Below, one piece after another: positions 9,479 to 33,539 of a DNA stretch of 40,000 nucleotides. Below the pieces are notes generated by a model. It worked only from the letters and a program-made list of their open reading frames with translations, had not been told where the DNA came from and ran no database searches. A program made the translations under genes and the position numbers. Source of the DNA: an uncultured Solirubrobacterales bacterium (GTDB lineage: Bacteria; Actinomycetota; Thermoleophilia; Solirubrobacterales; Solirubrobacteraceae). Where the stretch lies: positions 24,091-64,090 of the forward strand of contig CAWBCU010000029.1 in NCBI GenBank assembly GCA_963787335.1, in the 5' to 3' direction. Numbering within the stretch: position 1 is the first letter of the stretch; each line of letters starts with the position of its first letter.

Positions 9479-10176
9479 GGGGTATGAACAACACGATGCT
9501 CGCTCGAATCGCCACCGCCGCGGCGCTCGCGGCCGCCCTCGGCGGCTGCGGGGAGACCGACGAGCCGGCGCAGAAGCGCGAGGCCCCGCGCGCTCCGACC
9601 GTCACACCGGCCCCGGCCGCGGGCAGCTTCCCCGCGAAACCGCAGGTCATCGACAAGTTCGACGACGACGGGTCGGGCTGGCCCCGCGACGGCTACCGCG
9701 ACGGTGCCTTCGTGCTTCCCGCGAAGGGCTCCGCCGCGGTCCTCGCGCCCGAGCGGATCGAGCCGGCGACCCGCGGCACGCTGACCGAGGTCATCGCCGA
9801 GCCGGCCCGCGGCGGCGCGGCCGGGCTGCTGTGTCGCGCCTCGGCCGACGGTGGCACGGGCTACGCGCTGCTGCTCGACTCGAATTCGACCGTGCAGCTC
9901 CTGCGCCTCGAGGACGGCAAGGTCGGGGTGCTCAAGAAGCACAAGCTGACCCCCAACGAGCGCAGCGATCCCGGGAAGCCCTCGCTGCTGCGGCTCGGCT
10001 GCGGCACGGCCAAGCCCGGGCAGCCGGTGACGCTGATCTACGCGATCAACGCGACGCCGTTCGGATACGTGACCGACCGCGTGAGCCTCGATCCCGGCGC
10101 CCAGGCCCGCGTGGGGCTGCTGGCGCGCGACGGCACCGCCCGCTTCGACGACTTCGCGCTCTACCTGGCGGGCTGA
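9475..10176 (+). CDS. Lipoprotein (possible LamG/jelly-roll-like domain)
   Basis: MRGMNNTMLARIATAAALAAALGGC carries the lipobox L-G-G-C. ATG 9475 overlaps the upstream TGA (ATGA); an alternative ATG is at 9484. The C-terminus ...GTARFDDFALYLAG resembles concanavalin-like folds (weak). Confidence 0.65.
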   Translation: MRGMNNTMLARIATAAALAAALGGCGETDEPAQKREAPRAPTVTPAPAAGSFPAKPQVIDKFDDDGSGWPRDGYRDGAFVLPAKGSAAVLAPERIEPATRGTLTEVIAEPARGGAAGLLCRASADGGTGYALLLDSNSTVQLLRLEDGKVGVLKKHKLTPNERSDPGKPSLLRLGCGTAKPGQPVTLIYAINATPFGYVTDRVSLDPGAQARVGLLARDGTARFDDFALYLAG

Positions 10177-11075
10177 CTCAGAGCTCGAGCTCGAGCCCGT
10201 CGTAAGCCGACCTCGACGCCGGCCCGCAGCACCGCGTCGCGCTCGGGCGAGTCCTCGAGCAGGACCGGGTTCGTGTTGTTGATGTGGACGAGGATCACCC
10301 GCGGGCGCTCGAGCCCGGCGAAGACCTCCAGCGTCCCGTCCGGGCCGGAGAGCGGCACGTGGCCCATCTGCGCCGCGGTGCGGTCGGAGATGCCGAGCCG
10401 CGCCAGCTCGTCGTCGCGCCAGAACGTCCCGTCGACGAGCACGACGTCGCTCGCCGCGAGCCGGCCGAGCACGTCGTCGTCGAGGCGCGCGAGGCCGGGC
10501 ACGTAGGTCAGCACCCCGCCGGTCGAGCGATCGCGGAAGACGAGCCCGGTCGCCTCGACGTCGGCGCCGGTCCCTTCGAGGTAGCGCGGCGCGTCGCCGC
10601 CCGCCGCGAACGACTCGACCTCGAGCGAGGAGCCGTCGAGGCCGACCCCGTTCGCGGGCTCGAGCGTCCGCCACTCGACGCCGCTGTAGTCGCCGAGCAT
10701 CCGCAGCACGGGATAGCCGTCGGTCAGCGCCTGGCGGACCTGCTCGCTGCCGTACACCCGGATCGGCGTCGACGACTCGCGCAGCAGCAGGAGGCCGGCG
10801 GCGTGGTCGATCTCCGCGTCCGTCAACAGGACCGCGGCCACCGGCGCGGCGCGGACGTCGTTGACGCCCTCCGCGCCGAGCCCCTCGAGTTGCTCGCGCA
10901 GATCCGGCGAGGCGTTGGCGAGGAACCACGGGCCGTCCGCCCCGCGGATCGCGATCGACGACTGCGTCCGCGAGCGCGCGCCGTTGCCGCTGCGAGCGGC
11001 CTCGCAGGTCGGGCAGTGGCAGTTCCACTGCGGGAAGCCGCCGCCGGCGGCAGAGCCGAGAATTCGTGCGCGCAT
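10161..11075 (-). CDS. pqqB: PQQ biosynthesis protein B (metallo-beta-lactamase fold); the 3' end looks frameshifted, with the canonical end at 10178
   Basis: MRARILGSAAGGGFPQWNCHCPTCEAAR...ILVHINNTNPVLLEDSPERDAVLRAGVEV. After GVEV the as-given frame reads GLRRARARALSQPAR*. Skipping one C at 10207-10208 gives AYDGLELEL* (stop 10178-10180), the usual PqqB ending. SD GAAGGAAAC precedes ATG 11075. Confidence 0.9.
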   Translation of the reverse strand: MRARILGSAAGGGFPQWNCHCPTCEAARSGNGARSRTQSSIAIRGADGPWFLANASPDLREQLEGLGAEGVNDVRAAPVAAVLLTDAEIDHAAGLLLLRESSTPIRVYGSEQVRQALTDGYPVLRMLGDYSGVEWRTLEPANGVGLDGSSLEVESFAAGGDAPRYLEGTGADVEATGLVFRDRSTGGVLTYVPGLARLDDDVLGRLAASDVVLVDGTFWRDDELARLGISDRTAAQMGHVPLSGPDGTLEVFAGLERPRVILVHINNTNPVLLEDSPERDAVLRAGVEVGLRRARARALSQPAR

Positions 11076-11110
11076 GTTTCCTTCGGAGCGCGCGATGATA
11101 AAAGGAAGGG

Positions 11111-12628
11111 ATGCAGGTGGAGCTGACCGCAACGAAACCGGCCGAGGTGGAGGCCGACGTGCTTGCGATGGCCGCGGGCGGCCTGGGCGTGCGCAGGCTC
11201 GACGCGCTCTTCGAGGGGCGGCTGGTCCGCGCGGCGGCCAGCGCCGATCCGGTGGCGGTGGTGCCGGTCACGCGCGAGGTGCGTGCGCGCAGCATCGCGC
11301 TGGTCAAGCTCGACGCTGCCGAGCCCGCCGACCTGCAGCTCGCGGCGGCCCGGGCGGTGCGCGCGCACGTCGGCGGCGGGACGCTCGCGTGGGCGCTCGA
11401 CGACACGCTGCCGATCGCGATGCGCCTGCAGGTCCCGCCGATCGTCGAAGGCGCCGTCCTGGGCTCCTACGAGCCCGGCCGCTGGAAGAGCGGCGAGCCC
11501 AAGCCCGGGGTCGACCGCTTCGTCGTGTGCGGGGCGGACGAGGACGAGGAGCGGCTGCGCGACTCCGCGACGCACGCCGAGGTCACCGCGCGCTGGACGA
11601 ACGTCGCGCGCGAGCTCGTCGACGGGCCGCCCAACTTCGTCACCCCCACGAGCCTGGCCGAGCGCGCCGCCGCGCTTCCCGGCGTCAGCGTCGAGGTCAT
11701 CGATCCTGCCGCCGCCGGGCTGACGGCGCTGACCGCGGTGGGCGGGTCGAGCGCGCAGGCGCCGAAGCTCATCGTCCTGCGCAACGAGCCCGCCGGCGCG
11801 CCCGAGCGGCCGCTGCTGGCGCTCGTGGGCAAGGCCGTCACGTTCGACGCCGGCGGCTACTTCCTCAAGCCGCAGTCCGACATCGTGCGCCAGAAGGGCG
11901 ACATGGCCGCGGGGGCGGCGGTGCTCGCCGCGCTCGGCGCCATCGCCGAGCTGGAGCTGCCGGTCAATGTGATCGGCGTCATCCCCGCCTGCGAGAACAT
12001 GATCGGCCCCGACGCGATCCGCCCGTCCGACGTGATCCAGACGGCCTCCGGCCTGACCGTCGAGGTGACGAACCCCGACGCCGAGGGCCGGCTGATCCTC
12101 GCCGACGCGCTCTGGTTCGCGCGCCGCCAGGGCGCGACCCACCTGATCGACCTCGCAACGCTGACGGGCGCGATGCGGGCCGGGATGGGCGACCTCTACG
12201 GCGGCGTCTTCTCCAACGACAAGACCTGGCTCGACGCGGTCGTGGACGCCGGCAACGCGTCCGGCGATCTCGCCTGGCCGTGGCCGCTGCACCCGCGCTA
12301 CAAGCGTCTTCTGGAGTCGCGCGTCGCCGACCTGCGCAACACCTCGGGGCGGCCGTACGGCTATCCGATCACCGCCGCCAGCTTCCTGGAGCACTTCGCG
12401 GGCGACGGCCCGTGGGCGCACGTCGACATGCTCGGGCCGGCGCTGCTCGACGACGATCGCGGCGACGCGATCGGCGAGGGCGCGAGCGGCTACGGCGTGC
12501 GCATGCTCGTCGAGCTCAGCTCGCGCATGGCGGCCGCGCTGCGGCGCGGCGCGCAGGAGGCGGCGCAGCAGGCGGGCGCCCGGGCGATGCGGTCGTTCAG
12601 GCGCAAGCAGGAGGACGACGACGACTGA
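11111..12628 (+). CDS. pepA: M17 leucyl aminopeptidase
   Basis: 505-aa ORF with VGKAVTFDAGGYFLKP, DMAAGAAV and VEVTNPDAEGRLILADAL (the NTDAEGRL motif region). SD AAAGGAAGGG precedes the ATG. Confidence 0.9.
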   Translation: MQVELTATKPAEVEADVLAMAAGGLGVRRLDALFEGRLVRAAASADPVAVVPVTREVRARSIALVKLDAAEPADLQLAAARAVRAHVGGGTLAWALDDTLPIAMRLQVPPIVEGAVLGSYEPGRWKSGEPKPGVDRFVVCGADEDEERLRDSATHAEVTARWTNVARELVDGPPNFVTPTSLAERAAALPGVSVEVIDPAAAGLTALTAVGGSSAQAPKLIVLRNEPAGAPERPLLALVGKAVTFDAGGYFLKPQSDIVRQKGDMAAGAAVLAALGAIAELELPVNVIGVIPACENMIGPDAIRPSDVIQTASGLTVEVTNPDAEGRLILADALWFARRQGATHLIDLATLTGAMRAGMGDLYGGVFSNDKTWLDAVVDAGNASGDLAWPWPLHPRYKRLLESRVADLRNTSGRPYGYPITAASFLEHFAGDGPWAHVDMLGPALLDDDRGDAIGEGASGYGVRMLVELSSRMAAALRRGAQEAAQQAGARAMRSFRRKQEDDDD

Positions 12629-12676
12629 GCCGGCCCTCGACGCCGGGCTCCGATCACCGTAAACTCCGGTTTGCTG

Positions 12677-14071
12677 ATGAGTGAGGCTGGCAAGCGTCAT
12701 CGCCCCAATGACGCGGAGCGGTACCAGGCGGTGAGGGCGGCACGCGAACGCTTCCTCGCCGGCGATGACCGTGTGCGGGGGGTCCGGCCCGAGGTGGCGA
12801 CATCGTGGTACCGCTGCCGCGAGCAGTACCACGTCGACCCGCGGCTGGAGCGCGCGCCGCCCGCCCACGCCGAGCCGTCGGCCGAGCACACGCTCGAGCA
12901 GGCGGTCGTGTTCGCCCACCTCGGCGGCGCCGCGATGTCGATCGCGCCCGAGGTCGAGAGCCTCGGGGGCGTCGTCACGGTCACCGACGGCGCCGCCCAG
13001 ATCCTGAGCGTCCACGGCGACCCGAGCACGCTGCGTCGCGCGCGCGAGAGCAACATGGCGCCGTGGTCGTGCTGGTCGGAGTGGGCGACCGGGACGAACG
13101 GGATGGGCACCGCGCTGGAGGCTCCCGGACCGGTGCTGATCAGCGGGCCCGAGCACTGGTGCGAGGGCCTCGACGAGTGGGTCTGTGGCGGCGTGGCCGT
13201 CCGCGACCCGGTGACGGCCGACCCCCTCGCGGTCCTCGACGTCTCGACGTGGCGCCACAACCTGCCCGCGCAGGCAGCCGGCTGGCTGTCCAACGCGGTG
13301 AGCGGCGCGCGCGCGGTCCTGCGCCAGCGCGCCCGCGACAGCGGCGGCGAGCTGGCCACCGCGTTCGCCCAGGCGAGCGCGCGGTCCGGCCAGGCGCTCG
13401 CGGCGCTGGACGCGAGCGGCAAGGTCGTCATCGCCGACGAAGAGGCCAGCCTCCTGCTCGGCGTCCCCGCGCGCGTGCCGGCGCTCGACCCGACCGTGCG
13501 CTGGCGTCCGGCGCTCGACCTCGGGAGGCTGACCCGTCACGCGACCAAGCAGGCCCGTCTCGACCGCAACTGGGTGGGCTCGACGCAGATCGCGACCGGG
13601 CTGACCACGGAGCCCCTTCGGCTCACCCTGCGCCCGGTGTTCCTCGGCGACCAGCCGATCGGGGCGCTCGCCGTGTTCGGATCCGAGAGCGGGGACCCCG
13701 TCGAGAGCGACGCACCCGAGCGCGTGATGAGCCCGCCGTCCCGGATCGTGGGCGTCAGCGGCGAGCGCATGGTCCTGCTGCACCGGGAGGAGGTGCACTT
13801 CGCCGAGGCCGACGGCAGCGACGTCTGGCTCGACACCGACGAAGGTCGCCTGCAAGCCTCGGTCCATGGCATCGACAAGCTCGAGGACGAGCTGGCGGGC
13901 AGCGAGTTCGTGCGCGTCCACCGGCGCTTCCTCGTCAACCTGAACTGCGTCAGGGCGATCGACCGGGGGAAGCGCGGCGAGTTGATGCTGGTCATCGACA
14001 GCCCGGCGCGCGACGCCGTGCCCGTGTCCCGCCGCAACGTGCCCGCCGTCCGGCGCGCGCTCGGGATCTAG
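12677..14071 (+). CDS. Transcriptional regulator: AcoR-like N-terminal/GAF sensor region fused to a C-terminal LytTR DNA-binding domain
   Basis: N-terminus: RERFLAGDDRVRGVRPEVATSWYRCREQYHVDP (AcoR/GAF-type regulators). C-terminus: VLLHREEVHFAEADGSDVWLDTDEGRLQASVHGIDKLEDELAGSEFVRVHRRFLVNLNCVRAI, the LytTR pattern (i.yieA.g.y....t......r.sl..le..L....F.R.HRsfiVNl..v). First ATG at 12677; the ORF track opens at TTG 12671. Confidence 0.7.
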   Translation: MSEAGKRHRPNDAERYQAVRAARERFLAGDDRVRGVRPEVATSWYRCREQYHVDPRLERAPPAHAEPSAEHTLEQAVVFAHLGGAAMSIAPEVESLGGVVTVTDGAAQILSVHGDPSTLRRARESNMAPWSCWSEWATGTNGMGTALEAPGPVLISGPEHWCEGLDEWVCGGVAVRDPVTADPLAVLDVSTWRHNLPAQAAGWLSNAVSGARAVLRQRARDSGGELATAFAQASARSGQALAALDASGKVVIADEEASLLLGVPARVPALDPTVRWRPALDLGRLTRHATKQARLDRNWVGSTQIATGLTTEPLRLTLRPVFLGDQPIGALAVFGSESGDPVESDAPERVMSPPSRIVGVSGERMVLLHREEVHFAEADGSDVWLDTDEGRLQASVHGIDKLEDELAGSEFVRVHRRFLVNLNCVRAIDRGKRGELMLVIDSPARDAVPVSRRNVPAVRRALGI

Positions 14072-15174
14072 GCGCGCTCGGCGAGCGGCGCGCGCTTCAT
14101 CGTGCGATAGACGAACTCGTCGGTCTGCGCCTGCTCGCGGGCCGCGACGACCTTCTCGTGGTGCGGTGAGTAGCGGCACACGGGATCGGTGGCCGCGGCG
14201 TCGCCGGTGAGGCGGAGCGCCTGGCAGCGGCAGCCGCCCCAGTCCTCCTCCTGCCGGTCGAGCGGGCACGAGCGGCACGGCTCCGGCATCCAGTCCGTGC
14301 CGCGGAAGTGCGTGAACGCGTCCGACTCGTTCCAGATCCACCCGAGCGAGTGGTCCTTCACGTTGGGGAACTCGAGGCCGGGGATCGTCGCCGCGGCCTG
14401 GCACGGGAGCGCCTCGCCGTTGGGCGCGATCACCATCGTCGTCCGCCCCCAGCCGCCCATGCACGGCTTCGGCAGGTCCTCGTAGATGTCCGGCAGCACC
14501 CACAGGACGGTGATGCGCGGGCCGACGCGCTCGCGGAAGCGGCGCACCGCCTCCTCCCCGCGCTCGAGCTGCTCGCGCGTCGGGATCAGCGCCTGCTCGT
14601 TCACGACGGCCCAGCCGTAGTACTGGGTGTTCGCGAGCTCCAGCCGCTGCGCGCCGAGCTCCTCCGTGAGCGCGAGGATCTCCTCGATCCGGTCGAGGTT
14701 CTGGCGGTGCAGGACGCAGTTGACCGTGAGCGGGAAGCCGAGCTCGCGCGCCGCGCGGGCGGCCGCGATCTTCTTCTCGAACGAGCGGATGCCGCCGATG
14801 CGGTCGTTCTCCTCGGGGTCGGGGCTCTGGATCGAGACCTGGACGTGGTCCAGCCCGGCCTCCTTCAGCTCCGCGGCGCGCTCGGGCGTGAAGCGCGTGC
14901 CCGCGGTCACGAGCGTCGAGTACAGGCCGGCCGCGCGCCCGGCGGCCACGAGCTCGTCGAGGTCCTTGCGCAGCATCGGCTCGCCGCCGGTCAGCGCGAG
15001 CTGCAGGACGCCGAGCTGCCGCGCCTCGCCGAGGACGCGGGTCCAGTCCTCGGTTTCGAGCTGCGTGCGCCAGCGGGGGCCGCCGATGTCCACCGGGTTC
15101 GAGCAGTACGGGCAGTGCAGCGGGCACTGGTACGTGAGCTCCGCGACGAGCGTGTAGGGCTTAGGCGGCAGCAT
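14068..15174 (-). CDS. pqqE: PQQ biosynthesis radical-SAM/SPASM enzyme PqqE
   Basis: MLPPKPYTLVAELTYQCPLHCPYCSNP (CxxxCxxC) and a C-terminal Cys-rich SPASM region (CRSCPLDRQEEDWGGCRCQA). Intact 368-aa frame. Confidence 0.95.
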   Translation of the reverse strand: MLPPKPYTLVAELTYQCPLHCPYCSNPVDIGGPRWRTQLETEDWTRVLGEARQLGVLQLALTGGEPMLRKDLDELVAAGRAAGLYSTLVTAGTRFTPERAAELKEAGLDHVQVSIQSPDPEENDRIGGIRSFEKKIAAARAARELGFPLTVNCVLHRQNLDRIEEILALTEELGAQRLELANTQYYGWAVVNEQALIPTREQLERGEEAVRRFRERVGPRITVLWVLPDIYEDLPKPCMGGWGRTTMVIAPNGEALPCQAAATIPGLEFPNVKDHSLGWIWNESDAFTHFRGTDWMPEPCRSCPLDRQEEDWGGCRCQALRLTGDAAATDPVCRYSPHHEKVVAAREQAQTDEFVYRTMKRAPLAERA

Positions 15175-15425
15175 CGACCACCAGCCCCCGCGCGCCCATG
15201 CCGCCGATCAGCTCGCGCACGTCGTCGGTCACATCCGCGCCCGCGTAGCGCTCCGAGAGCGTCGCCGCGATGTCGTCCAGCGAGCGCCGGCCGTCGCACA
15301 GCTCGAGCACGTGGACCGCGGTCTGGTTCAGGCGCACGGCGCCCTCCGGGACGAGCAGCAGATGCTCGCCCGCGCACGTCGTCGTACTGGAGGCGGACGC
15401 CGTCGACGAGCCGGGGGCGGTTCAT
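15161..15425 (-). CDS. pqqD: PQQ biosynthesis chaperone PqqD; frame interrupted near 15369-15371
   Basis: ATG 15425 overlaps the pqqC stop. MNRPRLVDGVRLQYDDVRG then goes out of frame. Removing one base of the CCC run at 15369-15371 gives ...VRGEHLLLVPEGAVRLNQTAVHVLELCDGRRSLDDIAATLSERYAGADVTDDVRELIGGMGARGLVVDAAA* (TAA 15161-15163), overlapping the pqqE start. Span is 265 nt = 3n+1. Confidence 0.8.
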
Positions 15426-16132
15426 GGCGCGACCGGCGGTTGCGTGTCGCCGCGCTCGATCGCCTCGAGCTGCGCCCACAGCACCTCCGTCTTGAACTTG
15501 AGCGCCGCGACCGCACGGTCCTGCTGCTCGCGCGTCAGGCAGCGCTCCACCACGAGCCCGAGCGCGTAGTCGGCGTCGCGCGGCGCCTGCTCGAGGCGGT
15601 CGCGGAAGTACTGGAGGCCGGCCGGGTCGATCCACGGATAGTGGCGCTCGAGCGCCGCGAGGCGCACGCGGATCGCGCTCGGGCCGAACAGCTCCGTGAG
15701 CGACGACGCGACGGCCTCGATCCAGGGCCGCTGGCGCGCGAAGTTGATGTACGCGTCGACCGCGTAGCGCACCGCCGGGAGCACGTGCCGCTCCGACGTC
15801 AGCTCGTCGCGCGGGACCCCGAGCGCCTCGCCGAGGCGCAGCCAGGACTCGATCCCACCGGTGCCCTCGGCCGTGCCGTCGTGGTCGATGATCCGCGAGA
15901 TCCACTCGCGGCGCACCGCGACCTCGGGGCAGTTGGACATGATCGCCGCATCCTTGAGCGGGATGGCCTGCTGGTAGCAGAAGCGGTTGGCGACCCATCG
16001 CTGCAGCTCCTCGCGCGTCAGCTCCCCCGCGTCCATCCGGACGTGGAAGGGGTGCAGGTTGTGGTAGCGCGTGCCCTGCGCGCGAAGGCGTTCTACGAAG
16101 CCGGCGTGGTCCCGGTCTGCTCCGGGAGCCAC
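15422..16132 (-). CDS. pqqC: Pyrroloquinoline-quinone synthase PqqC
   Basis: ...YHNLHPFHVRMDAGELTREELQRWVANRFCYQQAIPLKDAAIMSNCP...SRIIDHDG... is the canonical PqqC sequence pattern. GTG start at 16132. Confidence 0.95.
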   Translation of the reverse strand: MAPGADRDHAGFVERLRAQGTRYHNLHPFHVRMDAGELTREELQRWVANRFCYQQAIPLKDAAIMSNCPEVAVRREWISRIIDHDGTAEGTGGIESWLRLGEALGVPRDELTSERHVLPAVRYAVDAYINFARQRPWIEAVASSLTELFGPSAIRVRLAALERHYPWIDPAGLQYFRDRLEQAPRDADYALGLVVERCLTREQQDRAVAALKFKTEVLWAQLEAIERGDTQPPVAP

Positions 16133-16155: not shown

Positions 16156-16230
16156 CTACCGGGTGTAGAGGTACGACGTGACCTCGGAACAGAGGTCGAT
16201 TACCTCAAACTCTGGCTTGACCCATGTCAT
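16156..16230 (-). CDS. pqqA: PQQ precursor peptide PqqA (24 aa)
   Basis: The reverse complement reads ATG ACA TGG GTC AAG CCA ... = MTWVKPEFEVIDLCSEVTSYLYTR*, with the conserved W-x-K-P and E-V-T-x-Y (Glu/Tyr cross-link pair). SD GAGAGAGG is upstream. In the ORF track it is hidden at the tail of run-on ORF 16156..17265. Confidence 0.9.
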   Translation of the reverse strand: MTWVKPEFEVIDLCSEVTSYLYTR

Positions 16231-16265
16231 ATGGCGCCTCTCTCTTTCGTGTCGGGGGGTCCACA

Positions 16266-16294
16266 CCCTCGGGCACCTGTGCGGTGCCCGAGGG
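16266..16294 (-). promoter_or_regulatory. Intercistronic GC-rich stem-loop (perfect 12-bp stem, 5-nt loop) between xoxF and pqqA
   Basis: ccctcgggcacc (16266-16277) / tgtgc / ggtgcccgaggg (16283-16294) is a perfect inverted repeat. It becomes intergenic once the xoxF 3' frameshift is corrected (xoxF stop at 16314). No U-tract follows on the mRNA strand. Confidence 0.55.
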
Positions 16295-16313
16295 AAGGGT
16301 AATACGTGATGGC

Positions 16314-18007
16314 TCAGTCCGGCAGTGCGAACGCGAACAGCGCGCTGCCGTGCGAGGAGCCGAGCATCTTGGGCAGGAAGCCCTTCGGCCCAGCCGCCCC
16401 AGCCGCTCGGGGCGACGATGTACTGCTTGCCGTCGACGCTGTACGTCGAGGGGCTCGAGTGGTGGCCGCTGCCGCACTGGAACGCCCACAGGTGGTCGCC
16501 GGTCTCCGCGTCGAGCGCGTTGAACTCGCCGCTCGGCTCGCCGGCGAACACGAGGCCGCCGCCCGTGGCGAGGACCGACGAGCACATCGGGAGGTCCCGA
16601 CGCCAGCGCCACTTCTCCGCGCCGGTGCGCGGGTCGAAGGCGCTGATGGAGCCCGCGATGTCGTCGGCGTCCACCGCGACGCCCGCGCCCCAGTACGGGA
16701 TGCTCTCGACGAACTCCCTGCGGCGCCGCGTGGCCGTCGCCCCGACGTCCTGCACCGGGCAGTAGAGGAGCTCCGTCTGCGGGCTGTACGCCGCGTGCGT
16801 CCACTCCTTCGCGCCGGCCGGCCCGGGCCAGAAGTGCACCGGGTCGCCTTCCTTGTCGGGGTAGCGCAACGGCGTCACGTTGCCCTTGTCGTCGACCTCG
16901 CCCCAGTCGATGCGGTCCACGAACGGCACGACCCGGACCGGGTCCATGTTCGTGCGGTCGAGGATGTAGAGGAACCCGTTCTTGTCGAAGTGGGCGGCCA
17001 GCTTCTGCCCATCGAGGTCGAACAGGATGTGCTCCATCGTGGAGTCGTAGTCCCACAGGTCGTGCGGCGTGTACTGGAAATGGTTCTTGATCTCGCCGGT
17101 GTCGGCGTCAACCGCGACGCCGGAGTCGGTGTAGAGGTTGTCGCCCTCGCGGACCGCTCCGTCGAAGTCCGGGCAGGGGTTGCCCGTCCCGTAGTACAGG
17201 AGGTTGAGCTCCGGGTCGTACGTCGGGCGTGACCCAGCAGTTCGCGCCACCGCGCTGCCAGGCATCGCTGTCGGCCGGCCAGGTCTCCGAGCCGGGCTCG
17301 CCCGGCTTGGGGATCATGTAGCAGCGCCACACGCGCTCGCCGGTCGCGAGCTTGAACGCATCGGTGTGGCCACGCGAGCCGAACTCGCCGCCGGAGCTGC
17401 CGACGATGACCATGTCCTTGACGACCAGGGGCGCGACCGTCGCGCTCTCGCCCGCCCGCACGTCGCCGTACGTCTGGTCCCAGACCTTCTTGCCGGTCTC
17501 GGCGTCCAGCGCGATGATGTGCGCGTTCAGCGTGGTCATGAAGACCAGGTTGTCGGCCACGGCGACGCCGCGGTTGACGTTGCCGCAACACAGCGACACG
17601 TCGAACGGGGAGGCGTGCTTGTAGCGCCACAGCTCCTTGCCGTTCGCAGCGTCGATGGCCCACAGCTGGCCGTCCCAGCCGGAGACGTACATGACGCCGT
17701 CGACGATGATCGGGGAGGCTTCCCACGCGTACGTCGACGCGCCGGAGTGCAGGCCCATCGAGCCGGCCTGGAACACCCACTGCGGCGTGAGCTTGCCGAC
17801 GTTCTCCTTGTTGATCTGGTCCAGCGAGCTGTAGCGCTGGCCGTCGTACGTGCCGTAGTAGGTCAGCCAGTTGTTCGGTTCGTCACGGGCGTTGATGATC
17901 CGCTCGTGCGTGAGGCCCTTGGTTACGGGCGGCGCCTTGCCGACCTGGACGCTCAGGGTCGCGTAGGGGACGGCCGCGCCTGCGTCGACGTATTCCTCGG
18001 TTGCCAT
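16314..18007 (-). CDS. xoxF: PQQ-dependent methanol/ethanol-family dehydrogenase, XoxF-like (lanthanide-type DYD signature); two apparent 1-nt insertions
   Basis: N-part is ORF 17108..18007 (…NWLTYYGTYDGQRYSSL…DVSLCCGNVNRGVAV…AWQRGGANCWVTP). Middle is in the frame of ORF 16156..17265 (PTYDPELNLLYYGTGNPCP…TPHDLWDYDSTMEH…SGWGGWAEG). The C-end is in the third frame (FLPKMLGSSHGSALFAFALPD*, stop 16314-16316). Joins need removal of one base in GGG 17225-17227 and one in CCC 16381-16383. Span is 1694 nt = 3n+2. SD AAAGGAG is 8 nt before ATG 18007, with an in-frame stop just upstream. Confidence 0.85.
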
Positions 18008-18038
18008 TCAGTTGCTCCTTTTCAGTCCGGGCGATCGA

Positions 18039-18494
18039 CTAGACGGTCGGGCGAGGTTGCGGCGGGCGATCCAGACGCGCCTCGGCGGGCACGTCCCCGC
18101 CCACGACGATCGCTCCGGTCAGGCCGCGGCCCTCGTCGTTGCCGGTCGTGGAGCCGTACCAGTAGTAGCCCGGCCCGTCGAGCTCGAGCGTGGCCGTCCC
18201 CTTCGAGTGGTTGACAAGCCACAGGAACTGCGTGTCGCCGTTGCTCGGCATGACGGCGCAGTGCGTGTTCTTGTCGTCGTTGATGATCGTGAGCTCGATC
18301 GTGCCCCCGTGGGGCATCACGAGAACACCCGGCTCGTAGACCAGCTCATCCTCCGGGATCCGGATCGTGCCGGTCATCTTCCCGTCGGCACCCTCCTGCG
18401 CCTCTTCGACCTTCCCGCTACCCAGAACCCGACCCAGCGCGATCCCGTTCTGACGATTCAACTTCTCTACGTCAAAAACATCCGTCTCGCCCAC
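18039..18494 (-). CDS. Small soluble beta-sandwich (cupredoxin-like) protein, first gene of the xoxF-pqqACDE operon
   Basis: GTG 18494 is preceded by SD GAGAGGAG. VGETDVFDVEKLN...IRIPEDELVYEPGVLVMPHGGTIELTIINDDKNTHCAVMPSNG...LTGAIVVGGDVP resembles the cupredoxin strand pattern, but no full type-1 copper ligand set is visible. The stop lies 31 nt before the xoxF start. Confidence 0.55.
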   Translation of the reverse strand: MGETDVFDVEKLNRQNGIALGRVLGSGKVEEAQEGADGKMTGTIRIPEDELVYEPGVLVMPHGGTIELTIINDDKNTHCAVMPSNGDTQFLWLVNHSKGTATLELDGPGYYWYGSTTGNDEGRGLTGAIVVGGDVPAEARLDRPPQPRPTV

Positions 18495-18697: not shown

Positions 18698-19564
18698 ATG
18701 CGCGTCGCCGTCATCGGCTCGACCGGAGGCTGGCACGCCGAGCGACTCGTGCGTGCGCTGAGCGCCCGCGGGCACGAGTGCGATTTCGCTCCCGTGACGC
18801 GGATGGTGGGCCGGGTCGAGGGCGGCCTCTCGGTGCGCTCGCGCGACGTGGCGCTCGACGCGTGCGACGTCGTGATCGTGCGCGCGATCCCGCGCGGCTC
18901 GCTCGAGCAGATCGTCTTCCGCGTCGACACCCTGCACGCGCTGGCCGCGGTCGGCGTGCGCACCGTCAACGGCGCGCTCGCGATCGAGCACACGATCGAC
19001 AAGTACCTCGCCTCCGCGCTGCTGGCGGCCGCGGGTGTGCCGACGCCGCGGACCGTCGCCTGCGAGCGCGCCGAAGACGCGCTCGCGGCGTTCGACGCCC
19101 TCGGGTCCGACGTCATCGTCAAGCCGCTGTTCGGCTCGATGGGCTTCGGGATGGCGCGCATCGAGGACCGCGACGTCGCGCAGCGCGTGTTCCGCTCGCT
19201 CGAGATCAGCCGGTCGGTCTACTACCTCCAGGAGACGCTGCCGCACGACGGCGTCGACGTCCGCGCGTTCGTCATCGGCGACCGCGTGGTCGGCGCGATC
19301 GAGCGCGTCGGGAACGGCTGGCGGGCGAACCTCGCGCTCGGCGCGGAGCCGCGCCCGATCGCGTTGGACGAAGAGCGGGCGCGGATGTGCGTGCAGGCCG
19401 CGGCGACGCTCGGCACCGATTACGCCGGCGTCGACCTGCTGCGCGCCGCCGACGGGCGCGACTACGTGATCGAGGTCAACGGCATCCCCGGCTGGCGCGG
19501 GGTCGAGAGCGCGACGGGCGTCGACATCGCCGCGGCGCTCGTCGAGCACCTCGAGCGCACGTAG
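18698..19564 (+). CDS. mptN: RimK-type ATP-grasp ligase, tetrahydromethanopterin:alpha-L-glutamate ligase-like
   Basis: MRVAVIGSTGGWHAERLVRAL...DKYLASALLAAAGVPTPRT...VIVKPLFGSMGFGM...DVRAFVIGDRVVGAIER...ANLALGA...AGVDLL...YVIEVNGIPGW is the RimK/ATP-grasp pattern, in H4MPT gene context. Confidence 0.75.
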   Translation: MRVAVIGSTGGWHAERLVRALSARGHECDFAPVTRMVGRVEGGLSVRSRDVALDACDVVIVRAIPRGSLEQIVFRVDTLHALAAVGVRTVNGALAIEHTIDKYLASALLAAAGVPTPRTVACERAEDALAAFDALGSDVIVKPLFGSMGFGMARIEDRDVAQRVFRSLEISRSVYYLQETLPHDGVDVRAFVIGDRVVGAIERVGNGWRANLALGAEPRPIALDEERARMCVQAAATLGTDYAGVDLLRAADGRDYVIEVNGIPGWRGVESATGVDIAAALVEHLERT

Positions 19565-20320: not shown

Positions 20321-20338
20321 GATCGGGAAGCTTCACTC

Positions 20339-23765: not shown

Positions 23766-24319
23766 TCGTCGCCGATCGCGGTGCGCACCCGCGCGAGCAC
23801 GCGGTCCATCGCCGCCCGCTCGCGGGGGCCGGCGGTCTTGTCGACCACGACCTCCAGGCGCGCCAGCTCGGCGCGGATCTCGGCGGCCGGGAGCAGCCCG
23901 GTCCGCGAGGCGAGGATCGAGGCCTCGAGGACCGCGTGCGACGCCCGGTTGAAGCCGATGAACTCGCGGCCGGTCCCGCGGGCCACGACGGTCGTCGTCA
24001 CGCGTGCCCGCGGTCCCGTCGCGTCGATCGCGTCGACCCGGACCTCGCGCCACGAGCACGCGTCGGCGAGCACGGCGCCGTCGACCACCGAAGCGGGCCG
24101 GGTCGGCGGGTGCGGGTCCTCCAATGCGGCCTGCGTGAACAGCAGGATGTCGTCGGTGAGGTTGACGACCGCGGCGCCGCGCGCCTCCAGATTCCGCAGC
24201 GTGCGCGTCGCGCGAAACGGCTTGATGACGATCTGCTCGTCGCCCCACTCCACGCCCATCGCGGCGCAGTTGACGGTGCCGTCCGGGTTGATGGTCGTCG
24301 TGACCGTCTCGACGATCAT
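23762..24319 (-). CDS. DUF447-family (split-barrel-like) protein associated with H4MPT gene islands
   Basis: MIVETVTTTINPDGTVNCAAMGVEWGDEQIVIKPFRATRTLRNL...EFIGFNRASHAVLEASILASR. ATGA overlaps at both ends. Family assignment is from memory of the pattern. Confidence 0.6.
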   Translation of the reverse strand: MIVETVTTTINPDGTVNCAAMGVEWGDEQIVIKPFRATRTLRNLEARGAAVVNLTDDILLFTQAALEDPHPPTRPASVVDGAVLADACSWREVRVDAIDATGPRARVTTTVVARGTGREFIGFNRASHAVLEASILASRTGLLPAAEIRAELARLEVVVDKTAGPRERAAMDRVLARVRTAIGDE

Positions 24320-25266
24320 CCCCGGAAGGACTGCTCGAGCACGTCGAGCCGCACTCCCCCGGAGTGGAAGGAGCGTCCGCTCTCGACGCTCACGAGCCGC
24401 ACCTCGGCCGGGCTGAACAGCATCGGATCGATCGCGTAGAAGTCCCAGTCCGCGGCCTCGAGCAGCTTGCCGAACGGCTCGCCGAAGTCGTCCGAGGCGG
24501 AGGAGGGCAGGCGCTCGACCAGCCCTTCCAGCTCGTCGTCGGGCGCGTTGACGGTGAGCTCGACCTGGCCGCCGTAGAGGACCGCGTCGTTGGTGCGCCC
24601 GATCGCCTCCGGATCGGTCTTCGCGACCGGCGGCAGCGGGCAGGTCCCGAAGCCGCTCACCACGCGGCCGATGTCGAACTCGAGCTCGTGCAGCTTGTGC
24701 AGGGCGGTCTCGACGACGCGGGCGGCGACCTGGACGCCGCCGGCGAGGCTCGCCGTCGGCGCGTAGAGCAGCGTGAGGTCCCCCGGCGCCACGCCGGCGC
24801 GGTCGGCCACGTACGCGGCCAGCTCCTCGGGCGGCTCGTCGCCGGTCTCGAGGGTGAGGACCGCGGTGCTCGAGCGCTCGTCGACGTCGAGGTCGTCGTA
24901 GAGGTCCTCGGCGCGGATCAGCGCGCGGCCCGGCCCGCTGGCCATCGCGAAGTAGCCGTCGCGGTCGATCTTCCAGCCCGCGTACTGGGACGCGAGGCAG
25001 GCGAGCGCGGGATGGTCGGTGACGACGGTGAGCGCCGGCAGCCACGTGCCTTCCAACACGAGCGGCGCGAAGCTGACCGAGCCCAGGCAGCCCATCGTGA
25101 TCTCGGCGAACCGGCGGCCCGCCTCGAGCCCGCCCGGGACGTCGCTGCCGCAGTCGATCACCCGCGTCCCGCCGTCGAGCGTGCGCGCCGCGACGCGCAA
25201 CGCGTCGGCGTCGGCGGCGATCAGGTCCGCGAAGTCGTGGGCGCGCTGGTTCAGGGAGAGGGTCAT
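24316..25266 (-). CDS. mch: Methenyl-tetrahydromethanopterin cyclohydrolase
   Basis: MTLSLNQRAHDFADLIAADADALRV...VIDCG...GGLEAGRRFAEITMGCLG...LACLASQYAGW...FAMASGPGRAL...GRTNDAVLYGG is the Mch pattern. ATG 25266 shares its A with the fhcC stop. Confidence 0.9.
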   Translation of the reverse strand: MTLSLNQRAHDFADLIAADADALRVAARTLDGGTRVIDCGSDVPGGLEAGRRFAEITMGCLGSVSFAPLVLEGTWLPALTVVTDHPALACLASQYAGWKIDRDGYFAMASGPGRALIRAEDLYDDLDVDERSSTAVLTLETGDEPPEELAAYVADRAGVAPGDLTLLYAPTASLAGGVQVAARVVETALHKLHELEFDIGRVVSGFGTCPLPPVAKTDPEAIGRTNDAVLYGGQVELTVNAPDDELEGLVERLPSSASDDFGEPFGKLLEAADWDFYAIDPMLFSPAEVRLVSVESGRSFHSGGVRLDVLEQSFRG

Positions 25267-26074
25267 CAAGGCTCCAGGATCAGGATCTCAGCACGCCTGA
25301 GCTCGGCGCTGTCGCCCGACCAGCGCGTGTAGAGCCCCTCGAGCTGCTCGTCGGTGACGGGCAGGCCGAGCGCGCGCAGCCGGCGCAGGCACAGGCGCAG
25401 GAACGGCGGGCGGTACGCGCAGGCCGGCGCGTAGGTCGGGAGGAGCGTGGGCGCGGTCATGGCGACGATGCTGGCGCGACGCATACCCGCGCCCGGGTGG
25501 GCGCCAACCGTCCCGAAGGCGACGATCGTGCCGGCCAGCGCGTTCAGGCCCGCCGCCGCCCCGACGCGCCCGGCGACCGCGATCAGGCCCCGTCGCAGCC
25601 CGGCGCCCGCCTGCTCGCCGGCGTCGCCGTGGACGAGGATCTCGCCGCCGTCCATCCCGGCGCGCGTCCCCGCGTAGGCGCCGCCGAGGCTGCGGCCGGC
25701 GGAGCCGCGCACGACCAGCCGCCCGCCGTGCATCTCGGCGCCGGCCCAGTCGCCCGCGTCGCCCTCGACCACGAGCTCGCCGCCCGACATCCCCGCCCCG
25801 ACGTGCGGCCCCGCGCTGCCCGCGACCGTCAGGCGCCCGCCCGGTCATGCCCGCTCCCAGCGTCCGCGACGCGCGCCAGGTCACCGACGACACGGACGTC
25901 CTCCTCACCAGCGCCGGAGACGTCGAACAGCTCGCCCACCGTCGCGCGCTGGTTGCCGTACAACACCTCGAGCCCCTCGATCTCGGCCTGGCTCAACCCC
26001 GCGAGCCGGTCGGGGCGAAGCGGAGCGCTCAGCGGCGCCGACGGCGCCTCGCGCAAGGTCAACTCCAGCGTCAC
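25266..26074 (-). CDS. fhcC: Formyltransferase/hydrolase complex subunit C (formylmethanofuran dehydrogenase subunit C homologue); two apparent 1-nt insertions 10 nt apart
   Basis: GTG 26074 (GTGA with the fhcD stop). VTLELTLREAPSAPLSAPLRPDRLAGLSQAEIEGLEVLYGNQRATVGELFDVSG...DLARVADAGSG, then out of frame. Skipping one base in each of CCC 25850-25852 and CCC 25840-25842 gives GSGMTGGRLTVAGSAGPHVGAGMSGGELVVEGDAGDWAGAEMHGGRLVV..., restoring the G-x-x-M-x-G-G-x-L-x-V beta-helix repeat. Span is 809 nt = 3n+2. Confidence 0.8.
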
Positions 26075-26958
26075 GGCACGAGCTCCTTCAGCGGGAAGTG
26101 ATGCTCGCCGAGGCTGCCGCCGTAGTTGCCGGCCGTGATCTTCACCGCGCCCGCGCGCGCCGCCGCGTCGAGCCCGACCCGCATCGCCTCGCGCACCGGC
26201 TCGGGCGCGAGCCCGTCGATCACGATCTCGAACACCGACCCCACGCCCTCCGGGACCTTGCTCTCGTCGACCTGGGCGCGCAGCGTCGGGCACAGCTCGT
26301 GGTTCGTCGACGCCATCTGGCCCGAGTAGCGCGACCCGACCTTGCTGCCGCTGCGCGCGATGCCGCCCGGGAACGGCAGGATCGCGCCCTCCACCGACCG
26401 CATCGCCTCGGCCGCCGCCTCCGCCGCGCCGAGGGCCGTCGCCACGTCCTCGGCCAGGATGATGATGTTGCCGCCGCCGACGCCCTCGACGATCCCGAAG
26501 CGCTCCTCGACCAGGAACTCGCCCTCCATCACCGGGATCCGCCAGTACCGCTTGCCGTCGAGCACCTTGCTCGCCTGCCAGCCGTCGCCGAAGTAGCGCA
26601 GCTTGCCGCCGACGTCGGTGTCGTCCTCGGCCTCGAGGCCGTTGAAGCACGACGTCGTCGGGCAGGTGAGCACGGTCATGCCGATGCGCTCGACGAGCCG
26701 CTTGCCCAGCCCCTCCTCGTCGGGCGCGAACAGCAGCACGGCGACGCCGGGGCGCCCGTCGGGCGTCTCCCCCGCGTCGAGCACGCGCTCGATCCCCGCC
26801 TCGCACTTGCACCCGATCACCGACGTGGCGAAGCCGGTGAGCGAGCGCGCCGCGTGCTCCGCCCAGCCCGGCGTGCCGGCGGTGACGACGATCCGCGCGC
26901 CCCACATCCCGAACGCCTCGGCGAACGTGTCCTCGACCTCGACGCCGTGGAGTTGCAT
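26071..26958 (-). CDS. fhcD: Formylmethanofuran:tetrahydromethanopterin N-formyltransferase (Fhc subunit D)
   Basis: MQLHGVEVEDTFAEAFGMWGARIVVTA...GFATSVIGCKCEAGIE...TCPTTSCFNG...RIPVMEGEFL...GGGNIIILA...ILPFPGGIARSGSKVGS is the Ftr pattern. It is the last 295 aa of run-on ORF 26071..28698. Confidence 0.9.
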   Translation of the reverse strand: MQLHGVEVEDTFAEAFGMWGARIVVTAGTPGWAEHAARSLTGFATSVIGCKCEAGIERVLDAGETPDGRPGVAVLLFAPDEEGLGKRLVERIGMTVLTCPTTSCFNGLEAEDDTDVGGKLRYFGDGWQASKVLDGKRYWRIPVMEGEFLVEERFGIVEGVGGGNIIILAEDVATALGAAEAAAEAMRSVEGAILPFPGGIARSGSKVGSRYSGQMASTNHELCPTLRAQVDESKVPEGVGSVFEIVIDGLAPEPVREAMRVGLDAAARAGAVKITAGNYGGSLGEHHFPLKELVP

Positions 26959-28592
26959 CACGACGACCCCGCCGCGACCCGCCGCGCCGGCTCGAGCAGC
27001 CACGGCTCGGTCACGGGATAGCTGTCGAACTGCACGGTGTAGCGCTCCTCGAAGCGGTCGCGCAGGACGTCCTCGATCGCGGGATCGTGCTCCGTCCCGA
27101 CGCGGTGCAGCTCGCCCGCCAGCGCGTCGACGATCTCCCCGTCGCGCACCACCACGCGGCCGCCCTTGATCACGTAGCGCGGCGCGGCGAACATCTCCTC
27201 GCGGTCGGCGCGGTCGTCGTAGAGCGTCACGTCCGCGTCGGCGCCGACCCCGAGCTGGCCCTTGTCGCGCAGCCCCAGCAGCCGCGCCGGCCCGGCGCGC
27301 GTGATGATCGCGATCTCCTCGAGCGAGTACTCGCGGTCGAGGTCGTCGAGCAGCACCGTGCTCTGGATCGCCTTCTTGTTCGCCTTGCGCAGCTGCTCGT
27401 TGCGGAACTCGCGGTCCATCAGCAGGCGGATCAGCCGCGGGTAGCTGAGGAACGAGCCGCCGTTCGGGTGATCGGTCGAGAGCACCAGCCGCCACGGGTC
27501 GCGGCTGAGCAGGAACAGCTCCAGCCCGATCCCCCACTGCAGCGCGTGGACGTAGTTCTTCTCGCGGTAGGTGAACGGGACGATGCCGCAGCCGGTCTCG
27601 ACCTCGGTGTCGGCGTTCACCCACTTGCCGCCGGTGATGTCCCGCAGCCGCTCGGACACGGGCGCGTCGGCGGTCATCGTCATGGCGTCGCCGAACATCA
27701 CCTGCCCGACGTCGGCGCTGAACTCGGGATGCTCGCCCAGGTACTCGGCCAGCTGCGGCGCGCGCGAGCGCAGCTTCCCGCCGGGCTTGCCGCCGTACGC
27801 GTGGAACTGGAGGTGCGCGAGGTGCGCGCGCCGGCCCTCCATGGTGTCCAGCGTGTCCATCGTGGTCTTCCAGTTGCCGCCGACGCCGAGGTTGTTGCAG
27901 TGCACGTGCACCGGGTGCGGGAGCTCGAGGTCGTGCACCGCGCCGGCGATCGTCGCGAGCACCTCCCTCGGCGTGACGCCGGCGACCACGTCGTCGAGCG
28001 AGCTGACGTTGCCGTCGCCGCGCTTCCAGCGCTCGACCCCGCCCGGGTTGACGAGCTTGACCCCGTAGCCGCCCGTCGCCTCCAGCCACCACGCGACCGC
28101 GTCGCGCACCCGCGCCGGGTCGCTGCGGATCAGGTCGAACAGCGCCTGGTTGTTGCCGAGGAGCACGAGGAAGAGCGAGTCGATCATGGGCGTGTCGCGC
28201 AGCTCGGAGAGGACGTGGCGCGCGGCCAGCGGCGGCGTCGCCGCCTCGACCACCGTGGTGTAGCCGAGCAGCGCGTAGCGGTAGCCGGTCACGAACGTCG
28301 ACGGCACGATGCCGCCGCTGCCCGAGCGCAGGATCTCGGACCGCTCGACCGGATCCCCGCGGTGCTCCTCGGGGGTCAGGCGGCGGGCGGCGTTGACCTT
28401 CGGGCCGGCGATGTGCGCGTGGATGTCGACCCCGCCCGGCATCACGACCATGCCGCGCGCGTCGATCCGCGGCGCGTCCTCCGGCAGGTCCTCGACCACC
28501 TTGCCGTCCTTCAGGCAGACGTCGCGCACGTCGCCGGCGACCCCGTTGGCCGGGTCGTAGACGCGCCCGCCGGCGACGCGGAGCTGGGTCAC
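26958..28592 (-). CDS. fhcA: Fhc subunit A (formylmethanofuran dehydrogenase subunit A homologue, amidohydrolase fold)
   Basis: Intact 544-aa ORF. MTQLRVAGGRVYDPANG...MVVMPGGVDIHAHIAGPKVN...HVHCNNLG...STDHPNGG... are amidohydrolase metal-site motifs. Confidence 0.9.
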   Translation of the reverse strand: MTQLRVAGGRVYDPANGVAGDVRDVCLKDGKVVEDLPEDAPRIDARGMVVMPGGVDIHAHIAGPKVNAARRLTPEEHRGDPVERSEILRSGSGGIVPSTFVTGYRYALLGYTTVVEAATPPLAARHVLSELRDTPMIDSLFLVLLGNNQALFDLIRSDPARVRDAVAWWLEATGGYGVKLVNPGGVERWKRGDGNVSSLDDVVAGVTPREVLATIAGAVHDLELPHPVHVHCNNLGVGGNWKTTMDTLDTMEGRRAHLAHLQFHAYGGKPGGKLRSRAPQLAEYLGEHPEFSADVGQVMFGDAMTMTADAPVSERLRDITGGKWVNADTEVETGCGIVPFTYREKNYVHALQWGIGLELFLLSRDPWRLVLSTDHPNGGSFLSYPRLIRLLMDREFRNEQLRKANKKAIQSTVLLDDLDREYSLEEIAIITRAGPARLLGLRDKGQLGVGADADVTLYDDRADREEMFAAPRYVIKGGRVVVRDGEIVDALAGELHRVGTEHDPAIEDVLRDRFEERYTVQFDSYPVTEPWLLEPARRVAAGSS

Positions 28593-31827: not shown

Positions 31828-32343
31828 ATGGCAGGTCCTTTTTCAGTGGGCGAGTCCCTGGTCGGCGATGGCAATGAGGTCGCTCACATCGACCTTCTGA
31901 TCGGGTCGAAGGGCGGGCCGGTCGGTGAGGCGTTCGCGTCCTCCCTGACCAATCAGCGGGCGGGGCACACGAACCTCCTCGCGGTCGTCGCGCCGAACCT
32001 TCCGGCGAAGCCCGACACGATCATGTCCAACAAGGTCACGCTCAAGGGCGAGGCGCAGGTCGGCCAGATGTTCGGGCCGGCGCAGGCGGCCGTCGCGCGC
32101 GCCGTCGTCGACTCCGTCCGCGAGGGCGTCATCCCGGAGGCCGACGTCGAGGACCTCTGCATCGTCGTCGGCGTGTTCATCCACTGGGAGGCCGCCGACG
32201 ACAAGGCGATCTTCGACAACAACTACACGGCCACCAAGGAGTCGATCGCCCGCGCGCTCGGCAACCAGCCCAGCCTGCAGGACATCCTCGACGGCGAGGC
32301 CGAGGCCCGGCACCCGTTCGCCGGGGGAACCGACGAGGGCTAG
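31828..32343 (+). CDS. fae: Formaldehyde-activating enzyme
   Basis: MAGPFSVGESLVGDGNEVAHIDLLIGSKGGPVGEAFA...LLAVVAPNLPAKPDTIMSNKVT...MFGPAQAAVARAV...VGVFIHWEAADD is near-canonical Fae. SD GGAGGAGAGG precedes ATG 31828. Confidence 0.95.
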   Translation: MAGPFSVGESLVGDGNEVAHIDLLIGSKGGPVGEAFASSLTNQRAGHTNLLAVVAPNLPAKPDTIMSNKVTLKGEAQVGQMFGPAQAAVARAVVDSVREGVIPEADVEDLCIVVGVFIHWEAADDKAIFDNNYTATKESIARALGNQPSLQDILDGEAEARHPFAGGTDEG

Positions 32344-33131: not shown

Positions 33132-33156
33132 TCAAGCGTCAAGGAGGCGATCGCCC

Positions 33157-33531: not shown

Positions 33532-33539
33532 CCCAAGGC

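Follow-up and report, generated by a model that had tools for sequence, protein, structure and literature searches.

An operon encoding a putative cytoplasmic, lanthanide- and pyrroloquinoline quinone (PQQ)-dependent methanol dehydrogenase with a copper-less cupredoxin partner, both proteins lacking a signal peptide, was identified in a 40,000-nucleotide stretch of DNA (G+C content, ∼74%) from an uncultured Solirubrobacterales bacterium (assembly GCA_963787335.1, contig CAWBCU010000029.1, positions 24,091 to 64,090), hereafter the window. The cytoplasmic location and the substrate are predictions drawn from sequence and gene context, and we hold this reading to be somewhat better than an even bet. 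The small-subunit gene (18039..18494, minus strand; 151 amino acids [aa]) starts at GTG 18494 behind the Shine-Dalgarno sequence GAGGAG and ends with the stop codon at 18039-18041. It is followed by the gene for a PQQ-dependent dehydrogenase of the methanol/ethanol family, lanthanide type (16314..18007, minus strand; 563 aa after two 1-nt removals). PQQ dehydrogenases and the biological use of lanthanides have been treated as periplasmic, Gram-negative traits, and a 2024 survey did not expect XoxF in Gram-positive genomes (PMC10875860). The cassette described here is widespread in abundant soil Thermoleophilia, beside a full tetrahydromethanopterin (H4MPT)-dependent formaldehyde pathway, and these bacteria are possibly overlooked users of methanol and lanthanides.

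Export signals and copper ligands of the enzyme and its partner

The initial annotation of the window described the dehydrogenase as having a well-defined start and no signal peptide, and both observations were confirmed. The start codon, ATG 18007, lies 31 nt after the stop of the small gene, with AAAGGAG 8 nt upstream and an in-frame TGA abutting it. The first 12 residues carry a charge of −3, with neither an RR motif nor a transmembrane segment, and the maximum 10-residue Kyte-Doolittle mean over the first 32 residues is 1.35; this value is ≥2.0 in 71 of 92 representative homologues. An N-terminal hydrophobic region is likewise missing from two other, long PQQ-dehydrogenase-like representatives, P0352 (872 aa) and P0385 (925 aa).

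In a scan of one genome per species, at least 504 genomes were seen to encode a relative of the small protein; 80 of the loci were read and, together with the closely related contig L001, make up a set of 81. The 80 loci are mostly labeled Thermoleophilia or unclassified Actinomycetota, with three others (Methylomirabilota, Acidimicrobiia, and Chloroflexia), and include the isolate “Ca. Solirubrobacter pratensis” URHD0082. The small gene is located directly upstream of the dehydrogenase gene in all 81 loci, as well as in loci L082 to L085. The dehydrogenase starts with MAT(E/D)..YVDAG in 81/81 loci, with nothing signal-like upstream, and the gap between the two genes is just 1 to 43 nt, which leaves no room for a hidden leader. 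Thus, a hidden upstream signal peptide, such as might have emerged from an earlier in-frame start after sequence correction, was ruled out for both genes by the start context, the gaps, and the N-terminal hydropathy. The same cassette is found in a cultured organism, Streptomyces sp. NBC_01483, on a linear plasmid of 1.56 Mb; the enzyme there is 72% identical, starts with MTVEYVDAG, and is likewise leaderless.

The closest relatives, from Gemmatimonadota, show the opposite condition. All three Gemmatimonadota enzymes examined (P0242 and those of L084 and L085) bear lipoprotein signals, with the lipoboxes LVAGC, AALGC, and VAAC. After the lipobox, these enzymes contain an extension, ..PFTAL....G.APPV.., that is also found at the N terminus of the window enzyme. 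Because this conserved stretch follows the Gemmatimonadota lipobox, it belongs to the mature protein and is not a cryptic export tag.

The first cistron had been annotated as a cupredoxin-like protein of 151 residues without a signal peptide and tentatively assigned to the family named after Mycobacterium smegmatis MSMEG_3727; both claims hold. The protein scores 247.9 bits against TIGR04339 (cutoff, 75) and 249 bits against PF23509 (cutoff, 27), and no signal peptide or membrane segment was found in it. An AlphaFold2 model built from 15 near-identical sequences reached a predicted local distance difference test (pLDDT) value of 53 and was discarded, whereas addition of Gemmatimonadota homologues raised this value to 81. 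Foldseek searches with the latter model retrieved auracyanin (E value, 1e-6), cupredoxin_1, CuA domains, and pseudoazurin; a profile search against PDB sequences yielded a weak pseudoazurin match (E value, 0.5) that was taken as a lead only. As modeled, the small protein is a cupredoxin beta-sandwich.

Potential copper ligands and signal peptides were then compared across 240 homologues, 120 from Gemmatimonadota and 120 of the actinobacterial type, plus the window and Streptomyces proteins. The Gemmatimonadota proteins (median length, 189 aa) possess signal peptides, with a strict lipobox in 109 of the 120 and variant lipoboxes in the other 11, and carry His, Cys, His, and Met as ligands without exception (120/120). 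Conversely, the actinobacterial type (median length, 151 aa) lacks a signal peptide and, as in the window protein, retains only the first ligand, His78, the others being replaced by Ser115 (for Cys), Asp120 (for His), and Leu125 (for Met) in 119 to 120 of the 120 members. Electron carriage by the small protein therefore cannot be assumed, given that the type-1 copper ligands are gone. However, the former site was not left to decay: Cys79, His96, Asp73, and Glu121 are also invariant in the actinobacterial type, and His62 nearly so, which indicates that the copper site was rebuilt under constraint.

Integrity, active site, and family of the dehydrogenase

In the window sequence as given, the dehydrogenase frame is broken twice, on the face of it the mark of a decaying pseudogene. 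The first break is one extra C (CC to CCC; 17224..17225, minus strand), where the window reads ACGCCCGAC and L001 reads ACGCCGAC; the second is one extra base (GA to GAA; 16380..16384, minus strand), where GCCGAAGGGC in the window corresponds to GCCGAGGGC in L001. Removal of one base at ∼17225 and one at ∼16384 yields a 563-aa protein that ends with FAFALPD at the stop codon 16314-16316 and equals the database protein P0001 over 563 aa, with V13I as the sole difference. P0001 is encoded on L001, a contig from ENA that matches the window at 97.6% identity across 13.3 kb and in which the dehydrogenase gene is intact. Between the two contigs, there are 38 indel sites (49 gap positions), nearly all of 1 nt and scattered over coding and noncoding sequence alike; for example, mptN is broken in L001 where it is intact in the window. 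The nearest genome matches are nanopore-derived metagenome-assembled genomes of Solirubrobacteraceae. Both frameshifts are thus explained as assembly errors rather than gene decay and, with the conserved residues showing no sign of erosion, the pseudogene reading was rejected as highly improbable. Further frame-split genes occur at 33127-35791, 20250-21386, and 4168-7025; the frame-split genes are pterin dehydratase-like, dihydropteroate-synthase-like, MtdB-like, H4MPT-linked hydantoinase-like, and RibD_C-like/membrane genes, a pattern that fits 1-nt indel errors throughout the assembly.

P0001 scores 607.2 bits against TIGR03075 (cutoff, 480), and the two fragments in the uncorrected window sequence reach 269 and 324 bits. 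Alignment to solved structures places the vicinal pair Cys140-Cys141 in DVSLCCGNVN (17573..17602, minus strand), the motif already noted in the initial annotation; both cysteines are 100% conserved in 117 members of the clade. The catalytic Asp319 and the lanthanide-type Asp321 lie in TPHDLWDYDS, which was previously reported at 17041-17067 but occupies 17041..17070 (minus strand), and correspond to D299 and D301 of the SolV XoxF structure 4MAE. The metal ligands E208 and N276 (E172 and N256 of 4MAE) are retained as well. The column of D321 contains Ala in MxaF and Thr in quinohaemoprotein alcohol dehydrogenase, and by this residue the enzyme is predicted to be of the lanthanide type. Residue 342 (window position ∼16980, minus strand) is a Lys (FDKNGF), where XoxF, MxaF, and PedH contact PQQ with an Arg (R326 in 4MAE); this Lys is common to the Thermoleophilia and Gemmatimonadota enzymes.

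The DYD motif had been read as a hallmark of XoxF, and the enzyme had been labeled accordingly, but neither claim survived comparison with the wider family. Of the 50 sequences used for the phylogenetic tree, 47 have the extra Asp, so the motif marks lanthanide-type PQQ dehydrogenases in general. Among solved structures, the best match of the window enzyme is PedH (362 bits), followed by XoxF (293 to 301 bits) and MxaF (∼250 bits); XoxF and MxaF structures score 540 to 835 bits against each other. In a neighbor-joining tree of these 50 sequences (200 bootstraps; reference sequences transcribed from PDB alignments), MxaF and XoxF are monophyletic to the exclusion of the window enzyme in 200/200 bootstraps and are joined to it in 0/200. 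The window enzyme groups with Gemmatimonadota P0242 (58% identity) in 200/200 bootstraps and with PedH in only 2/200, and thus does not fall with the PedH-type ethanol dehydrogenases either. Judged by these sequence comparisons, the dehydrogenase is a member of a separate lanthanide-type clade, distinct from XoxF1-5/MxaF and from PedH/ExaA. The clade of the window enzyme is possibly, but not necessarily, the “PQQ-ADH (alcohol dehydrogenase) type 8” of a 2026 preprint.

The similarities to known systems are therefore partial. The window enzyme shares with XoxF (4MAE, 6DAM, and 6OC5) the eight-bladed PQQ propeller, the Cys-Cys pair, the Glu/Asn/Asp ligands with the extra Asp (D-Y-D), and methanol as the probable substrate, but differs in its position outside the MxaF/XoxF clade, its missing signal peptide, and the lack of a visible xoxG; no XoxJ was found among the annotatable open reading frames (ORFs) of the window, in a search that was not exhaustive, some ORFs being fragmented by indels. 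PedH/ExaF-type enzymes (6ZCW) likewise possess the lanthanide Asp, in D-F-D, but they are not the sister group, contain a long loop before the GGG motif that the window enzyme is missing, are periplasmic, and use cytochrome c550. The Gemmatimonadota system (P0242/L082, L084, and L085) is the nearest: it is the sister clade, has the same order of small gene and then dehydrogenase gene, and shares the active-site residues, including the Lys that replaces the PQQ-contacting Arg, and the N-terminal extension of the mature protein. What sets it apart are the lipoprotein signals on both proteins, the His/Cys/His/Met copper ligands, the DUF2231 protein, and the TonB-dependent receptors, none of which are seen here.

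The cassette that gave TIGR04339/PF23509 their name, MSMEG_3721-3727 of M. smegmatis, also combines one PQQ dehydrogenase, PQQ genes, and the small protein. As noted by Haft (2011, PMC3023750), MSMEG_3726 is the only PQQ dehydrogenase of M. smegmatis, and its gene shares a cassette with those for PQQ. Unlike the window cassette, that of M. smegmatis is not reported beside H4MPT genes. In the literature searched, no characterization of its function or location was found, and a 2019 paper mentions MSMEG_3721-3727 in passing only. Nor did the literature searched contain a description of the missing signal peptides, the copper-site loss, or the contrast with Gemmatimonadota, or anything specific on the PQQ enzymes of Thermoleophilia, Solirubrobacter, or Conexibacter.

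Cellular location, electron outlet, and substrate

No CxxCH motif is present in any six-frame ORF of ≥40 aa in the 40-kb window, as the initial annotation had stated. The motif is also absent from the conserved gene clusters of the 81 loci, for which only same-strand, positionally consistent clusters were used because antisense ORFs of high GC content had contaminated the single-linkage clustering; across these loci, there is also no conserved signal-bearing partner. In the Gemmatimonadota loci L084 and L085, a gene for a DUF2231 membrane protein follows the dehydrogenase gene (L084:11383-11868 and L085:11433-11942), and the pair is flanked by TonB-dependent receptors (L084:6441-8762 and L085:12616-14778). 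The DUF2231 protein may be a membrane electron sink in these loci; it is absent from all actinobacterial loci examined. In L085, the copper-binding small protein is encoded in two tandem copies.

These observations favor the cytoplasm as the location of the actinobacterial pair. The loss of the copper ligands went along with that of both export signals, even though monoderms can anchor lipoproteins well, and the membrane partner of the exported version is absent. The number of cysteines per enzyme is doubled (median of 9 in the clade of the window enzyme versus 4 in exported relatives), and the cytoplasm is where PQQ is synthesized and where the formaldehyde-activating enzyme Fae and the H4MPT pathway operate. 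That the closest relatives bear lipoprotein signals on both proteins further strengthens the case. Under this scheme, the enzyme and its small partner would have moved into the cytoplasm in Actinomycetota, PQQ would be made in place and inserted there together with the lanthanide ion (Ln3+), and methanol would be oxidized to formaldehyde, to be taken up within that compartment by Fae and by the H4MPT pathway of the neighboring genes. The small protein would not carry electrons by way of type-1 copper and would probably be an obligatory subunit with a remodeled site. Of the system proposed in the initial annotation, a cytoplasmic or unconventionally exported XoxF with a noncytochrome partner, the leaderless condition and the noncytochrome, cupredoxin-fold partner thus stand, but XoxF does not.

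A different explanation is that both proteins cross the membrane without a classical leader, through a SecA2-like pathway, by hitchhiking on a Tat substrate, or by a lineage-specific route, and act on its external side, as other quinoproteins do. All characterized PQQ dehydrogenases are extracytoplasmic (general knowledge, also stated in PMC10875860), the Cys-Cys pair is invariant, and the strongly conserved N terminus, MAT-E-YVDAG, could in principle serve as a recognition motif. However, that N-terminal stretch follows the lipobox in Gemmatimonadota and is hence part of the mature protein, and monoderms normally keep such proteins as lipoproteins, yet here both lipoprotein signals are lost, along with the copper ligands. 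With the raised cysteine content and a signal-bearing partner conserved in 0/81 loci also speaking against it, export appears rather unlikely.

Several points weigh against the cytoplasmic methanol dehydrogenase. The vicinal Cys-Cys pair is invariant, and in known enzymes this pair is a disulfide, in an oxidizing compartment. No cytoplasmic acceptor is evident, and the potential of the free PQQ/PQQH2 couple (∼+90 mV) is higher than that of menaquinone, the quinone that actinobacteria usually employ. Actinobacteria also have ways to export proteins that carry no leader, the SecA2 substrates being one example. Furthermore, the clade placement comes from a simple neighbor-joining tree of 50 sequences, the substrate is predicted from gene neighborhood only, and H4MPT genes do not adjoin the copy in Streptomyces or, reportedly, that in M. 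smegmatis.

The prediction of methanol as the substrate is drawn from the Fae/H4MPT linkage, which recurs in two different locus arrangements in Thermoleophilia, in the second of which Fae is encoded ∼5 kb upstream of the small gene, and from a report that describes the Gemmatimonadetes relatives as methanol dehydrogenases of high abundance, encoded adjacent to H4MPT genes (Butterfield et al. 2016, PMC5103831). The recurrence of the link in two independent Thermoleophilia arrangements also speaks against another explanation, in which the enzyme is cytoplasmic but the small protein serves in metal handling (Ln3+/Ca2+ delivery) or in MxaI-like support, and the enzyme is perhaps a broad alcohol/aldehyde dehydrogenase. 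In its favor, the best solved relative is the ethanol dehydrogenase PedH (362 bits versus 301 for XoxF), and the Streptomyces and M. smegmatis copies are not tied to H4MPT genes. In addition, Asp, Glu, and Asn abound in the loops at the lost copper site (NDDKN and GNDEG), but the acidic N(D/E)D loop is also found in the copper-binding Gemmatimonadota proteins and so is not specific to the clade.

Cation-transporter genes offer this explanation a further argument. Such genes follow the dehydrogenase gene in 63 of the 81 loci (MntP family, 58; Na/Ca exchanger, 21; P-type ATPase, 9), and an MntP-family gene (PF02659) comes directly after the dehydrogenase stop in 56, which suggests trafficking of cations (Ln3+/Ca2+) tied to the dehydrogenase. 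Examples of MntP genes are L015:10281-10835 (plus strand), L060:10244-10816 (plus strand), and L083:17474-18064 (minus strand), the last being the Streptomyces copy, beside pqqE. In the lineage of the window (L001 to L003), Na/Ca-exchanger, Ca-type P-type ATPase, and MntP genes are not found at the cassette position. Set against the recurrent Fae/H4MPT link, the metal-handling and broad-substrate explanation seems less likely still than leaderless export.

For the favored cytoplasmic enzyme, the candidate electron outlets are the rebuilt cupredoxin site, oxygen, and a quinone at the membrane face. The transfer of electrons from methylamine dehydrogenase to amicyanin is a precedent for a quinoprotein that donates to a cupredoxin; it fits the Gemmatimonadota version of the system, although that pair is periplasmic and not homologous to the dehydrogenase and its partner. 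MxaI of MxaFI, also periplasmic and not homologous, is a precedent for a small nonredox subunit, a possible role here. A KatG-like catalase-peroxidase is encoded directly upstream of the small gene in Streptomyces sp. NBC_01483 (L083:9177-11528, plus strand), a single case that could hint at H2O2 formation or be a coincidence.

If the enzyme is cytoplasmic, lanthanides would have to be imported into the cytoplasm, possibly by the MntP-like, Na/Ca-exchanger, and P-type ATPase gene products, and PQQH2 would have to pass its electrons to something other than a cytochrome c or a blue-copper protein. The entry of Ln3+ into the cytosol and its handling there, the reoxidation of PQQH2 in the absence of cytochrome c and copper, and the function of the rebuilt cupredoxin site would then become the questions to address. 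Whether the enzyme would be both the first cytoplasmic quinoprotein and the first cytoplasmic lanthanoenzyme, in a tight complex with a cupredoxin whose site is rebuilt from His78/His96/Asp120/Glu121/Cys79, we regard as a little short of an even chance. The exported, copper-binding pair of Gemmatimonadota and the leaderless, copper-less pair of Actinomycetota form a natural experiment, and cultured hosts of the cassette are available in Streptomyces sp. NBC_01483, strain URHD0082, and M. smegmatis.

Operon layout and neighboring genes

The PQQ biosynthesis set, pqqA to pqqE, is complete in the window, and PqqB, -C, -D, and -E score above the equivalog cutoffs. The dehydrogenase gene is followed on the minus strand by pqqA (16156..16230; MTWVKPEFEVIDLCSEVTSYLYTR), which contains the Glu-X3-Tyr motif, scores just under the cutoffs of both PF08042 (19.9 bits) and TIGR02107 (16.2 bits), and keeps its position in related loci. 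Next are pqqC (15422..16132; TIGR02111, 318 bits), pqqD (15161..15421; TIGR03859, 59 bits), and pqqE (14068..15174; TIGR02109, 501 bits). The initial annotation had listed pqqACDE, an order that is correct but incomplete: pqqB is also present, 5 kb away (10161..11075, minus strand; TIGR02108, 345 bits). Convergent with pqqE is the gene for a LytTR/MimR_N-type regulator (12671..14071, plus strand; PF04397, and PF26965 on the L001 orthologue; synteny), and upstream of this gene is that of an M17 leucyl aminopeptidase (11102..12628, plus strand; NF002073, 358 bits, under its cutoff; synteny), a candidate PqqA-trimming peptidase. In roughly half of the loci, the genes for the aminopeptidase and the regulator accompany those of the pqq set, and the regulator is present in Streptomyces too.

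The operon is surrounded by genes for Fae, mch, fhcA/B/C, mptN, and further H4MPT-related functions, in agreement with the Fae and H4MPT pathway genes reported next door by the initial annotation. Hidden Markov models identified Fae (31828..32343, plus strand; TIGR03126, 237 bits), mch with fhcC/A/B for H4MPT-linked formaldehyde oxidation (24316..30322, minus strand; TIGR03120, TIGR03122, TIGR03121, and TIGR03129), and an mptN-like H4MPT:glutamate ligase gene that is divergent from the operon (18698..19564, plus strand; NF040720, 237 bits, and TIGR00768).

Between the dehydrogenase stop and pqqA, there is a GC-rich hairpin with a perfect 11-bp stem (16267..16293, minus strand); the 90-nt spacer folds with −35 kcal/mol (z score, −2.5). 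The hairpin is kept only in L001 and L003, with a few base changes, and was dropped as a candidate functional element. A promoter and terminator scan returned nothing useful, and an Rfam search returned no match. Finally, an ORF at 8228-9478 (plus strand) combines a Flp-pilin-like hydrophobic N terminus and a large middle domain with C-terminal PDLPNLP repeats.

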